The position numbers and the translations under genes were made by a program. DNA of 64,000 bases, from assembly GCA_000934665.2 (NCBI GenBank), contig JYFJ02000332.1:1-64000 (forward strand), written 5' to 3'. The notes beneath the pieces were generated by a model. The model was not told the origin of the DNA, ran no database searches, and saw nothing but the letters and a program-made list of their open reading frames with translations. Shown piece by piece: positions 29,901-53,650 of this stretch; the stretch's first letter is position 1, and each line of letters begins with the position of its first letter. This DNA comes from Catajapyx aquilonaris (Eukaryota).

Positions 29901-32900
29901 GCTACGTTATCAGTGCCTGATATGGTTCGAGGTTACTTCTCCACGATATACAAATAGACATGATGGCATGTCCTTTTCCTCCCTCAGCTCAATATATTTA
30001 AAGAAGAGCAACTTTAAACGCTTAGGAAAAACCCTCACTCGCCCACCCACACGCACTTGCAGATATCCGACTCGCCAATGTGAAGAAAGAAGGGAGTGAA
30101 GTAAAAATAAGTCAACAAACAACTCAGAGCACGAGGTCTTGACTAACACCGGAAAAATTTGCAAAACACGTGCACAGAAAATTCTACTCCATTGTAAGAT
30201 TGTAAACAACACATTTCTTCAAAAGTAATGAAGAATGCGAAAATATTTAATACGTAGACCAGCGATCGTTACATCCCTGACACGCAATAATATCGTGAAA
30301 ACCTTATCACGGAAAGTTTGAGAGCGGACATTGATTAGCATAAATGTAGTCTTAGAGTGCTGTATGATAAGGTTCTATTTTTACCGGACGTATAAAACGA
30401 ACTATATATAACACAAGGCTGATACATAAACAAATGTTTAAATAGGTTGGCATAGGCCTATACGGCTATACCGGAAAAAAGTGGCTCTTTGCCCAGTTCC
30501 CTTCTATCTATAGTTCTCAATAATATTACTACATTATTTTGATACATAATGGTTCCTATAAATGTAACTAAATAACTATACGCGACAGAAATGCCACAAC
30601 GAGTCACACAGCCAAAAATCATTTTCCCACCGGCCACAAAAAATTACGCTTATTACAGCACTCAACTTCCCGTAGATTAATGAACCTGATATATTGATCT
30701 TCATATCCTTTATACAGTATGCGATTATTTTGACTCCAATCTCTGCTCCACTCCCAGCTTCCGTATTATCCGAATATTAGATTATCCGAACATTACCCCT
30801 CCCTGTTAGCCCAAATAATCAAGCTCCTGTTCTATACAGCAGAATCTCAAGTTAAAATTTCAGTATCCGTATACTGCACAAGATAACGTTATATCCAGGC
30901 ACTATATTTGCATATTATATTGATAAATTTGGCGATTATTAGTCATTTCTGCCCACACTTTGCCATTGCTTGTCAGGTTCATTACCCACGATTGCATTTT
31001 TTTTCCTATGTACTGTACATACCCCGCTCCCATTAAAATCGCAATTTATTAGCAATTACCCGCAAAATAACAGCATACATCGCAGTATACGGTCAATCCC
31101 CACTATTATTAAATACCGCCCCGAGCACTGCCCATGTACGTAGGATGCATGAATCCAGGTCTAGGGTACTCCGGCACATTTCCAATTACCAACCTTGATC
31201 TTGTTCTGGTTTAATCTCGTCCAGGAGTGGGTGGATGAAATGAAGTGGAAGTAGAGTGAGGGATTCCCTTCCCCCCCCCCTCCCCCCCAGCTAATATAAT
31301 TGAATCAGTCGCTAACAAAATTTAGTTTGGGCCACATGTCGAAGGAAAAGTGGGCACGAGCTGAGCTGGAACCCAGATGGGGTTAACCGCCTCATTAGCC
31401 TGCAAACATCACGCTGAGGGAAGGTGAATTATACCCCCACCCCCCACCCCCAGCCTCGTGTCTCTTAGGACCCTCGCCCCCTAGGATCCCTCGCCCCCTA
31501 AGTTCCCACGCCCACACACCCAACAGAGAAATTGCATCAGAGAAAATTGATTCCCTCTTTATAGCGAATTCCCAGATTTTCATATCAATAACCCCCAGGC
31601 ACCCACGATTGAAAAGCAACTTTTATTTCCATCGCTTCCTCAGTAAATGACGTCAGGAAGTGATTAACTATCGATTACGACTCCAAATTAGAGACGGCGA
31701 CCTGCCTAGGGCTATCAGCTTCAAAAGCAAACTTTGCATCTTCGGATTAGCACCCTTGCCCACGGCTCCACACTAAATTATAGCAACATGCTCTAATCAT
31801 TTATATTTCAAATATGGTCCGAACTCTCGCGCTTGTCGTGACGTAACTGACCGATATCATCTAAGTTTGGACAAGGCGGCCATTATGCGTGCAGAAAATA
31901 CGATCGGGAGGTCGGTGTCCTGAAATGGCCTCCTATAGTATTAATATTCAGCTTCTTTTTTCCAATCTTTTCGAGCAGGAAAAAAAGGTTAAAGGCCAGA
32001 TCTTGCATCTTGAAAGGAGATCAACACCCACGTGAATGGGGATCAACATGAACCCTGGGAGATTCCAGTGACGCAAAGGTCCTAGACCACGAAAGGAACC
32101 GTCGCGAAATTTAACAAGCGTTTCCCCTGCAAACCCATGAAAACCAACCCCAGAGATCAATACACTACGCTCTTTGGGCCGCTTTTACAGGTGCTAGCAA
32201 TGCATCCTGCTGCATGCGAAGGAATAATAGATGAAACGAGGACAACGCCTTTTTAACGTCAGGTTATTACTTAATGTTACTTACTTCACTGGGCACCAAT
32301 CCGTTCTTGCCAGATTTGACGTTGATTTGTGCCTTGGCCGCGACCTGCGCCGTGACAGGTGCGCGTCCATACTTGGAGATGGCATCTTTATGGCTTAAGG
32401 TGCCCGGACTCTGCAAAGACAATGAGAGAAATTAAAACATCGGGTATAACAACGGTACAATGGCAATTACCACTTTAGATCTCCTCCCCCTATGCCAAGG
32501 GTAGGTGTAGTACCACCTCAGCTGCGTGGCTTCCATACATGTGCCGTTTAAACAAGTGAAGATCATAGCAAGAAAGGCGAAGAAGAGGAGGAGGAAGAAG
32601 ACAGAGGAAGAAGAAAGGTTTCGTGCGAGGGCACCAATAAGATGGGTCAGGTGGTAACCAACGTGAAACACGGAAGTTGGCCGTTACGAGCGATATTGAT
32701 TGTCCGCATTGGCCAGACACGACACGACACTTGGGGAAACCCCCCCAGTTGGGGTACTATCAGACACTGCACATGTCACCCGCACGTGTCACCATCGGGG
32801 GCAGAGCACCGGGTGCTGTTCCTCCCAGCATCCGGGGCGGGAACCGACTGGCCCAGCCCTCGTCTCCTCCACTTCTTCTGCGCCTGCCAACAGCCATCGA

Positions 32901-35900
32901 CTACCCTCGCCCGCAGCCCTGTGTATCCACGTGACCGCAACGTCACCACGTGAAGAGGTTTGATCAATACACCTCGCCCCCGCCACCATCAGTGCAATCA
33001 ACATCTATACCCCATAGTTTTTTTTGTGACCATCCCGGAATGCTGATAATGACCTTTGGTTCCACGGCTTCCTGTTCGCAGGCGCCAATCATATCTGGGT
33101 CGGTGTCATTACCGCAGACACTTGGGCCATGTGCTTCCTTTCCGGATCGCTGGCCCGTGCGGCCTCAGAAAACTTGAGAGCAAGCCAAAAGGAGCCTGTC
33201 ATTCTGGTGCAATGCACCTTGTAGCCTACAAAAGGGCGCCTGTGTAATTAACCTTTCCATTTTATAACGGGGAGGTGTCGTCTTGCAGTTCTTATTACAA
33301 TGGGGAGGCCCCTTTTGTTGCTGGAGAATCGGATCCTGCGCGTTCCTAATGATGAAACCGTATATGCGATTCTATACCCCAGGCCACGGTTATGCAGATA
33401 TGTACTCATGCGTCTCTCGACTGTTGATTTTGCCCCGGAATGTCACAAACTACGTCATATATTCCGATGGTTGGCAAATCGGTGTCTAATCACGGGGCTG
33501 TTTACCCCTAACCTACCCTGGATGACCGTGCTAATGCGTAGGACTGGAAGGTGCTAATCTCGGAATATGCATTCTGGTGTAGCGCATAATGTCCGTCCCA
33601 CTTCAATGATGCTGTTCCTATCTAGGATTGGGAAACCTACAGAAAACCTGCATTTGCATAAGGTCCTACATTTTGGAGAATGCATGGGCGGTAATACTTG
33701 CTCGAATCTGGGAAGTCGATCAACAATTCAACAGATCGTCATAAAAAACGAGTTTTCAATAGGCTTCGGCAAGTGATTGGGAAATAGAGATCAGGATTTC
33801 CTTCTTCAGATATTAACTTCAAATGCTCGTTCTCCTTCTTCCTTTATTGCGTCTGGAGTTTCAATTTTACTAATGCAATCAGTATTCATATGGTCAACTC
33901 TAAGAATACCGGAAGCTCTTAGAAATAGACATCTTCCTTCTTCCCGGTCGGGTAGTCCCTCCCCAATAAAATTAGTCTATGACACCAGTTGCATTGACAA
34001 TCCCGAACCAGCGCAAGACAATCTGGCCATGGTCCAGCATCCTCCTACTCGGCTCCATCCCCTTCAGGGCCCTTGGCCTGGATGTGGCACCTGGGCCACA
34101 GGTAAGGGGGCAGTGTGAGTGCGACACCGGGGATGATGCCAGGTAATCAATAGGTACAGAACCCCCCATATCGACCCACACCAAAACTGCTCTCAGCCAC
34201 ATTCGAGTTATACCACTAGTTTGCACAATCCCGGCAGACGAGACTTTGCACTGTGCGCATAACATATATACACACACCTGGCCCTAACCTCTATTCCCCC
34301 AGCTTATTGCTAAAGGTCAAGGTCGGAGCCGACTCAGGTTTCATTAGCGCTGTTGCACATAAACATGAATACAGAGGGGCCGGTTGCCAGCTTCAATTTC
34401 GTTTTCAAGGTGGGTGAAAGTCCACCTGTTGCGCGCAGATGTTGTACACTGCACAGCATCCATTTTTATAGGAAAGGTTTACATGGCTTGATTTTTTTGC
34501 TAGCGGAAAAATCTCCTCCTGTTCTATTTTCTGCTTTGTGGGAGGCCAAGACGTCCGCAGGGAGGTGGTCGTAAATCTCGGGACAATCGGACCAAGGTCT
34601 TTGCCAATTTGTCGCTTCACTTCAGTCGGAAAAAAAGCTGCTTCCAAACTTGAAATCAAAAGGTTGAAAACAAACAATTACACAGCAGACTACTCTATTA
34701 CTAGTAACGAATTTTTGAGCAAAAACTGGCACGTGAATGCTCCAATTCGCAACATCCGGTGGTACTCTATTTTTATGCACCGGCCAGCATTTCCTATTCG
34801 TAATGCGACCTACTCTGCGTACTCTATAATTTGCCTACCTCAGCGAAAAACATTCTTCGCAAGAATAGAAGCGTGGACAGATATTACGCCTGTCTGCAAA
34901 CTATCCAAAAAGCCCGAGAGAAAATCAGATTGCAGATAGATAAGCATTCAACCCACGGCATGCTTCAGAAAAGTCGAATAACCAGATCGCTGTCAATGTA
35001 AAAAGGGGTGAAAAGGGATCTAAAAGGTGTATGCAAAATGTAAATAAACATTTGCCTCATTATTGCAACGTGATTACACCAGCAGTCTCCCGCCATCGCT
35101 CGGATCCTCCACACACTACACTTGCTTTCTCCGCCTGCACACAGATGGCCTAGAGTCGGCCCTACTTTTTTCTCCCGTATATACCTAAACAAACAACAAC
35201 ATTGACCAAAAAAAAAAAGAAAAAAAAAAAAAGGGAAAGCTGGATTGATAATGGAGGTTGCCCTTGGCAGGCTCCTTTACACAATTCATATTGCGATTCG
35301 ATCGTGAATTATACCATGGTGTTTATATACCGGTCTCACTTGTGAAGTAACAAAAGTGGATATGATCAACCGCATAATTATTTTATGTGACATGTTGCAA
35401 AACAGTTGGGGAATAGCAAAGCAAATCGGACCTTATCAAAGGGGTGCAGTACACTCATATTTCACCGACCACTCTACCGTCATATGGTGGTGAATAAATT
35501 ATGTCACATGATTACTACACCATTCCTCAACTTGAAGATCATTTTTCCAAGGCCGGTAAACAGGGCGGAATATGAACTTCGAGTTGCGGATCACTTGACC
35601 CGACCCCACCTCCTAGTCTGTGAACGTCTGGAATGAATAATGATGCGATACGGGCCTGCGACGCTTAATAAATCAGTGATGTGAACGTAATCTGTATCAG
35701 TCGCGCTTCCGTTACGCAAATTGCTTCTCACATGAACCACCCGCCACCAGCAATCCAACAACACTGGTTCCCTACCGTGGCCACTAGTCGATGCAATCGA
35801 TCCTCCGAGGCAGCCAGGTACAGCCGACCATCCTTGATCTGCCTGGTGCCAGAAGAACCGCTCCTCTTGGCAAACTTGCAATGTCGACAACCACAGTCCA

Positions 35901-53450: not shown

Positions 53451-53482
53451 GAATTTATAGCACCAAGGAGACCAAAACGTAC

Positions 53483-53650
53483 CGTTTTCGAACTCTTAGG
53501 CCACGGAAACCAACACCACCTGTTGGTTGGAGACAAACTGGAGTCGTCATCATCATCGTCCTTCTGTGCATTTTCAACCTTCTTCTTCTTCTCGTCGTTA
53601 CCACTGGCCTCCGGACTGCTGGCCGGCTTGGTCACAAAAATGATAGCCAT
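53483..53650 (-). CDS. Candidate alternative first coding exon of DYRK (MAIIFVTKPASSPEASGNDEKKKKVENAQKDDDDDDSSLSPTNRWCWFPWPKSSKT)
   Basis: Optimal Kozak context CACCATGG, 56 open codons and a phase-0 donor ACG|GTACGT. A CpG-rich leader lies upstream and a (GA)n tract just inside the intron. Confidence 0.55.

Follow-up and report, generated by a model that had tools for sequence, protein, structure and literature searches.

Does the apparently empty interval upstream of a kinase gene of Catajapyx aquilonaris supply that kinase with alternative N-termini? The stretch analysed here (contig JYFJ02000332.1, positions 1 to 64,000; hereafter the window, 64,000 nucleotides (nt) in all) carries on its minus strand a kinase gene that we assign to the class-II DYRK group, and a first-pass annotation had read some 21 kilobases (kb) upstream of it as a cassette of four variable first exons, all spliced onto one acceptor at 32410. 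Part of that proposal holds: two of the four segments, 37305-35776 and 32566-32471, have leaders that appear conserved in relatives, while 45288-45097 and 53650-53483 stand at chance level. Probably, the interval forms the 5′ half of a single DYRK gene of the arthropod class-II type, in which two or more alternative start exons, among them one distal and one proximal, are conserved.

Candidate start segments and the chance expectation

The acceptor on which the proposed exons converge could be confirmed. At 32410 (TTTCTCTCATTGTCTTTGCAG/AGT) it opens, in phase 0 as annotated, a 42-codon exon (32410-32285, minus strand; 126 nt, phase 0 at entry and exit, donor GAA/GTAAGT) that holds no in-frame ATG and matches the N-terminus of the homologue P0110 (42% over 50 amino acids (aa)). 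The four segments proposed to precede it are:

32566-32471, minus strand: candidate 1, 96 nt, 32 codons, ATG start, open, GT directly after
37305-35776, minus strand: candidate 2, 1530 nt, 510 codons, ATG start, open, GT directly after
45288-45097, minus strand: candidate 3, 192 nt, 64 codons, Gly/basic, ATG start, open, GT directly after
53650-53483, minus strand: candidate 4, 168 nt, 56 codons, ATG start, open, GT directly after

All four were found at exactly the annotated positions with lengths divisible by 3, and their translations have the peptide compositions that had been given for them. We then compared them with the background of ATG..GT phase-0 segments of at least 30 codons in 32411-56000. 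The minus strand of this interval holds 137 such segments spread over 55 open reading frames (ORFs), the plus strand 111 over 52 ORFs, and 100 second-order Markov simulations gave 123 ± 20 in 50 ± 6 ORFs. By itself, the ATG..GT phase-0 pattern is at chance level. The sole outlier in length is the 510-codon frame, against a simulated maximum of 259 codons and a plus-strand maximum of 150.

Other signals were of little help. The four donors score 1.5-2.9 bits, which is unremarkable, on a donor matrix. The annotation had described most of the upstream leaders as rich in GC and CpG; GC content over the preceding 400 nt is indeed high for two of the four (58% at 32566, the 96th percentile of the window, and 54% at 53650, the 93rd percentile) but not for the other two (44% at 37305 and 48.5% at 45288), and CpG observed/expected (0.43-0.84; window mean 0.66 ± 0.28) is unremarkable upstream of all four ATGs. 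A codon-usage log-odds score trained on the kinase exons ranks the candidates 2, 3, 7 and 25 of 108 ORFs; it was given no weight, because candidate 1, which has homology support, comes last of the four and below unsupported candidates. In a Pfam scan of the 137 ORFs that lie above 32400 and reach 70 aa, the only match was a sub-threshold one to DUF3915, on a frame of ERERER repeats. It is homology alone that separates the probably real candidates from the chance ones.

The proposed long distal start exon

Homologues were taken as the 120 best listed of 8000 scored, with 122 relatives retrieved in total. Their identity reaches 93% over the activation-loop exon and none is near-identical. Those with an organism name are nearly all arthropods (insects, decapods, ticks, a spider), and one of the 120 is Schistosoma haematobium P0005 at 53% identity. 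When these proteins were searched against the window by tblastn, residues 6-107 of P0082 matched 37212-36883, an 11/11 identical stretch appeared at 36327-36295, and three decapod-type proteins matched 37095-37027, all within candidate 2.

An alignment with 12 long homologues resolved seven blocks in a common order, including DYGFVE, KKSASFL..SWW, QKKWKSLG, SGDSL..PPxPP and CGCRHC. The ordered blocks of the arthropod DYRK extension are each found once in the 510-codon frame, and their order is kept: HSVSFTCL lies at residue 44, DYGFV at 78, the KW block at about 255, the FYLL block at 330 and CGCRHC at 471. The end of the window row is scattered over the kinase domains of the homologues; this is an artefact, since the row was aligned without its kinase part. 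The word FYLL[DE]D[FY]L occurs in 29 of the 120 listed homologues, 22 of which also have HSxSFxCL and DYGF. In the homologues CxCxxC stands 17-35 residues before an exon of the SPGT type; in the window CxCxxC starts at 471, and SPGT would fall at 511 if the frame were spliced to 32410. Of the phase-0 GTs near the end of the frame, ACG/GTAGGG directly after 35776 alone has a donor score above zero.

We next scored the frame against a profile of the 29 extensions. Without composition correction it reached 64.7 bits, while the runner-up among the 2172 window ORFs had 11.2 bits. Shuffling the whole frame 300 times gave at most 10.0 bits, and another 300 shuffles confined to 30-residue blocks gave at most 19.7 bits. 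By these controls the similarity to the extensions is real, but it is limited to short blocks in compositionally biased sequence. As a methodological observation, the default composition correction of HMMER wiped out the 65-bit match of this Pro/Ser-rich profile to its true counterpart; for homology of motifs within disorder, shuffled controls are needed instead of default E-values.

In relatives, the extension and the kinase go together. P0123 (883 aa), one of the proteins matched by the frame in a phmmer search, carries ..HDW..DCGCSHCK.. upstream of a DYRK kinase domain in a single chain. The contigs of the unnamed homologues P0051 (1124 aa, 4068-nt contig) and P0105 (1237 aa, 7881-nt contig) barely exceed the coding length; they must be intron-free and therefore presumably derive from spliced RNA, which would place extension and kinase on one messenger RNA. 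Among the 122 relatives the extension is joined to no domain except the DYRK kinase, with P0122 (317 aa) possibly a fragment. A Pfam scan found no domain in the 510-codon frame itself. From the homology we conclude that the frame probably serves the kinase gene as its long start exon, and the conservation in relatives that the annotation had left to be checked was borne out here, the matching peptide preceding the same SPGT..HKD exon in the homologues. The 510-residue extension looks disordered with short conserved blocks, which suggests docking or regulatory motifs.

The long exon may not be the outermost one. An acceptor-like site (TTTTGTTTTGTTTCCAG) with a long pyrimidine tract, its AG at 37458-37457, lies about 150 nt upstream of the ATG at 37305 and suggests at least one further, non-coding leader exon upstream.

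37456-37306, minus strand: possible 5′ untranslated part of the long exon, as read from the sequence; holds two short upstream ORFs
37305-35776, minus strand: putative distal first coding exon, 510 codons, Pro/Ser-rich, inside a 535-codon open frame

Leaders in homologues and the proposed short proximal start exon

Of the 120 listed homologues, 59 have an exon of the SP[GA]..HK[DE] type resembling the shared exon of the window, and what precedes it varies: the long extension in 29, a YxTYP leader in 11, and an M..FE leader of four to five residues in 7. Others, such as MPSQTTTILLKCSMVDVP..., also occur, and across arthropod homologues there are at least five leader types (YxTYP, M..FE, MPSQTTT.., the long extension and others). 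In P0011, P0035 and P0106 the leader is joined directly to the KLP.L exon and the SPGT-type exon is skipped. Many homologue names end in "isoform X1/X2/X3", and several isoforms per gene are therefore already annotated in arthropods. Within the set of 120, none of the proteins named as coming from flies, mosquitoes, sandflies or midges has a long extension.

32566 (or 32536) to 32471, minus strand: putative proximal first coding exon, 32 codons, or 22 from the second ATG
32470-32411, minus strand: putative 60-nt intron that follows the proximal start exon and leads to the shared exon, with an in-frame TAA inside

The end of candidate 1 corresponds to one of these leader types. It matches the crayfish leader FYHTYPWGLPRHRQ/SPAHHKD (P0095) and ten proteins starting M[CS][AS]Y[HN]TYP, so that the 11 carriers of YxTYP are ten insect or unnamed entries and one crayfish. 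In the six frames of the 64-kb window, Y[HYF]TYP occurs a single time, in candidate 1, with 0.025 occurrences expected. A 16-residue profile of the 11 homologue leaders placed the candidate 1 ORF first of 2172 at E 0.044, and at E 3.4e-4 without composition correction. In blastp, the spliced candidate 1 model aligned with P0008 and P0095 without a break, from the motif on into their bodies. The match draws its weight from position. The word stands in frame, three codons short of the GT, and a gap of 60 nt then leads to the very exon that follows the leader in relatives. For 32566-32471, too, conservation of the leader before the same SPGT..HKD exon was found in relatives. The second ATG, at 32536, may be the one where translation starts; it resembles the crayfish start MEGARVLVAPFYHTYPW.

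Shared exons and the kinase body

Downstream of the shared exon, the gene continues on the minus strand as follows.

29161-28846, minus strand: exon 2, KLPVLAAG..., acceptor phase 0, donor phase 1; matches P0108 and P0082
27715-27552, minus strand: exon 3, accessory region N-terminal to the kinase domain
26836-26712, 26170-26018, 25684-25546, 25190-24875 and 24758-23974, minus strand: kinase-domain and C-terminal exons, the last including the stop

The resulting eight-exon model, from 32410 to the stop at 23974, has an unbroken frame of 707 aa with a conserved C-terminus as in the aligned homologues; the kinase body of 685 aa given earlier was not reproduced. A word-index protein search with exon 2, restricted to longer proteins, found nothing. 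Skipping of the shared exon (32285-32410) would preserve the frame, as the acceptor of the next exon (28846-29161) is likewise in phase 0. The lack of this exon in some relatives (P0106, P0011, P0035) suggests that it is an optional cassette.

Pfam Pkinase matched three exons, 26836-26714 (E 3e-6), 25683-25546 (E 6.7e-6) and 25190-24876 (E 2.1e-21), the last of these noted as above the cut-off. YxY is the defining activation-loop motif of DYRK kinases, and it is present in exon 25190-24876. An atypical FTY activation loop is mentioned as an exception in a review (PMC7658070). Against the PDB, the 105-residue activation-loop exon scored 159.6 bits with DYRK2 (human, the best match), 147.2 with DYRK3 and 133.6 with DYRK1A; no DYRK4 chain was among its 39 PDB matches. 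Exon 3 (27713-27552) aligned to residues 9-60 of the human DYRK2 chain 7ejv_A at E 1.2e-13, and also to DYRK3; the DYRK2 structure is described as including the NAPA and DH box (PMC3677093). With a catalytic domain, Y-x-Y, an N-terminal accessory region and higher scores for class II than for class I, the Pkinase matches, the ranking of DYRK2 first and the alignment of exon 3 therefore identify the predicted product as a class-II DYRK (DYRK2/3/4 group). The earlier label "DYRK4-like" is looser than the data permit: human DYRK2 is the best structure, and the source names of the nearest homologues mix DYRK2, DYRK4, mbk-2 and pom1 without consistency.

A gene model with two start exons

At the sequence level, at least two ATG-bearing exons have donors phase-matched to one common acceptor. 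From these frames, splice signals and phases and from the homology, we infer a model in which the distal exon 37305-35776 and the proximal exon (32566 or 32536 to 32471) would each be transcribed from its own promoter, the proximal exon being nested inside the 3.4-kb first intron of the long form. Both start exons would be spliced in phase 0 to the shared exon at 32410. The long product would have about 1217 aa and the short one about 739 or 729 aa, with identical accessory region and kinase domain, and the forms might differ in localisation or regulation.

Several results weigh against this model. Under the default composition correction of HMMER, the profile of the 29 extensions has no match on the 510-codon frame, and because of this the homology of the long exon rests on the uncorrected score, the shuffled controls and the motif order. 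A word-index protein search with the frame found nothing, and an exhaustive phmmer search of 1.84 billion proteins returned just two proteins at E ≤ 0.001. The match of candidate 1 is only 12 residues long, its blastp-short score of 24.0 bits is equalled by 2 of 100 shuffles, and its codon-usage rank is just 25th of 108 ORFs. Long and short forms were not seen within one species in the homologue set, the crayfish pair coming from two different species, and the junctions 35776 to 32410 and 32471 to 32410 are predictions from the DNA. Finally, a single transcription start site is described for Drosophila smi35A/DmDyrk2, where deletion of the first exon abolished all transcripts (PMC3795635), in contrast to the at least two start exons proposed in the window; multiple start exons are therefore not universal in the family.

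Some of these points bear on the possibility that the long exon is the only real one. The 32-codon segment would then be an ORF due to chance, and the likeness of its YYTYPW word to beetle and crayfish leaders a coincidence. The shortness of the match, the shuffles that equal it, a default profile E of only 0.044 and the mediocre codon score all speak for coincidence. We nevertheless consider it unlikely, as the word Y[HYF]TYP is unique in 128 kb of six-frame translation, stands in frame, three codons before the GT and 60 nt upstream of the exon before which homologues have it, and belongs to the top profile match of the 2172 ORFs.

Candidates 3 and 4

It is considerably less probable that the kinase has four interchangeable N-termini, with every one of the segments serving as an alternative coding first exon spliced to 32410. 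Each opens with ATG, stays open and runs into a phase-0 GT that could plausibly act as a donor, and the at least five leader types found before the same exon across arthropods make more than two start exons per gene plausible. Candidates 4 and 3 also rank 3rd and 7th of 108 in codon usage; this score does not discriminate, and about 50 such ORFs are expected in the interval by chance. The best matches of candidate 3 to the 122 homologues are Gly runs and that of candidate 4 is a D run, and in each case 8 of 100 shuffles score as high. When the homologue leaders were searched against the window, neither candidate was picked out. The conservation that had been expected for 45288-45097 and 53650-53483 in relatives did not rise above the shuffled controls.

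Candidate 3 terminates in RRLLMVWFSETLA (..MVWFSETLA), which loosely recalls the M..FE micro-leaders (MLVFE/MVFFE/MLAVE) and the Zootermopsis P0035 leader ..RRHLLPWFSCQQGQ. The alignment of RRLLMVWFS with RRHLLPWFS of P0035 gives 20 bits at E 3.6, which is noise, and words of the M..F.E type are near expectation in the window (5 observed, 3.7 expected). Candidate 4 is of low complexity (K4 and D6 runs), and a perfect (CT)38 microsatellite at 53375-53450, which gives rise to the ERERER open frame, lies directly 3′ of its proposed donor. Most likely, candidates 3 and 4 are frames that are open by chance; at best, they would be leader exons of the long form without coding function.

Other leader-like frames were considered and set aside. 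The top hit of the search with homologue leaders, at 38777-38712 (minus strand), was rejected as a crab-type leader: stops enclose its frame of 23 codons, and its position does not fit the order in the crab proteins. The "MCAHHG.." frame at 53663 was rejected as a "MCAYHTYP" leader, since its frame differs from that of candidate 4 and meets a stop after 21 codons. "MLIFE" at 57268 and "MVFIE" at 58590 were rejected as M..F.E leaders because no GT donor follows either. In the first of these regions (38712-38780, minus strand), the frame GSGPYPPSFCPRESSLPLFYRP is 50% identical to the crab DYRK leader segment GSSLYSPVFSPRDSGYPRFVTP, which we treat as chance.

That the 510-codon frame is a separate gene outside the kinase transcript, either a single exon to the stop at 35731 or one with exons of its own, is very unlikely: the frame does stay open for 15 codons beyond the proposed donor before that stop, has no Pfam domain and would need a 3.4-kb intron to reach 32410, but the same blocks form the DYRK N-terminus in 29 of the 120 listed homologues, including the intron-free contigs, P0123 unites the kinase with the CGC.HCK block, and none of the 122 relatives joins the extension to another domain.

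Comparison with known systems

Under the two-start-exon model, the long form would resemble the long class-II DYRK isoforms of other arthropods, such as Microplitis demolitor P0016 ("probable serine/threonine-protein kinase dyrk2", 1162 aa), Procambarus clarkii P0111 ("mbk-2 isoform X1", 1200 aa) and Bemisia tabaci P0082 (uncharacterized, 799 aa). These have an extension of about 150-700 residues with the ordered blocks L[RK]HS.SF.CL, DYGF, SWW, [RK]KW[RK], SxDSL..PPxPP and CxCxxC, and then the SPGT..HKD exon, the KLP.L exon and the kinase. Unlike in these proteins, the splice in the window is a predicted one, the insect HRARTSTLP block is missing, and one insect-type block is mixed with one decapod-type block; identity of the homologues to the window row is low, at 23-40%, in an alignment that includes their kinase domains.

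The short form would be comparable to the "YHTYP" isoforms, represented by Cherax quadricarinatus P0095 (649 aa) and by the M[CS][AS]Y[HN]TYP proteins P0008, P0023, P0027, P0029, P0037 and P0039. They share with it a Y[HY]TYP leader and a basic stretch directly before the SP[GA]..HKD exon. The leader of the window is longer if the first ATG is used, and in several of the M[CS][AS]Y[HN]TYP proteins, unlike in the window, the shared exon is set off from the motif by 10-30 additional residues.

Mammalian DYRK4 variants arise from alternative promoters. Localisation of mammalian DYRK4 depends on the splice variant, according to a review (PMC5831797). The kinase of the window has in common with these N-terminal variants that it is predicted to be a class-II DYRK; the difference in localisation between variants is a feature of DYRK4, and no similarity was found between the window leaders and any vertebrate sequence. 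Another review (PMC7658070) places Drosophila smi35A/DmDyrk2 in a DYRK2 group together with mammalian DYRK2, DmDyrk3 and C. elegans MBK-2. Full-text literature searches turned up no description of the arthropod DYRK2 extension, the isoform passages of that review (PMC7658070) not being on arthropods, and a full-text search on mbk-2 isoforms from alternative promoters found nothing.

For annotation, this means that the "empty" 21 kb upstream of the kinase body would for the most part be taken up by one or more large first introns of the kinase gene, and that the 510-codon frame would belong to this gene and not to an orphan gene. For DYRK biology, we see a modest lead: non-dipteran arthropods appear to have a long, motif-rich N-terminal extension on a DYRK2-type kinase that corresponds to no Pfam family, and alternative start exons would allow the kinase to be made with or without it. 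The general principle of alternative N-termini is already known from the mammalian DYRK4 variants and from automated isoform annotation in arthropods. A bolder version is possible but doubtful: the extension could be an undescribed conserved regulatory module of insect and decapod DYRK2-type kinases (seven motif blocks, an invariant FYLLDDFL, CxCxxC), toggled through at least three start exons, candidate 3 (MVWFSETLA) then corresponding to the widespread M-x-x-F-E micro-leader.

Other features of the window

Downstream of the kinase, a second gene at 7361-19265 on the minus strand appears as a run of long open frames resembling coiled coils. For one of them, the frame 17052-16480, Pfam gives a match to CCDC113/CCDC96 that stays below threshold (22.7 bits; cut-off 31.6). 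Assembly gaps are marked by short N runs at 15291-15293, 27764-27769 and 55218-55220, the second of which sits in a G/T homopolymer tract of the intron just upstream of kinase exon 3.

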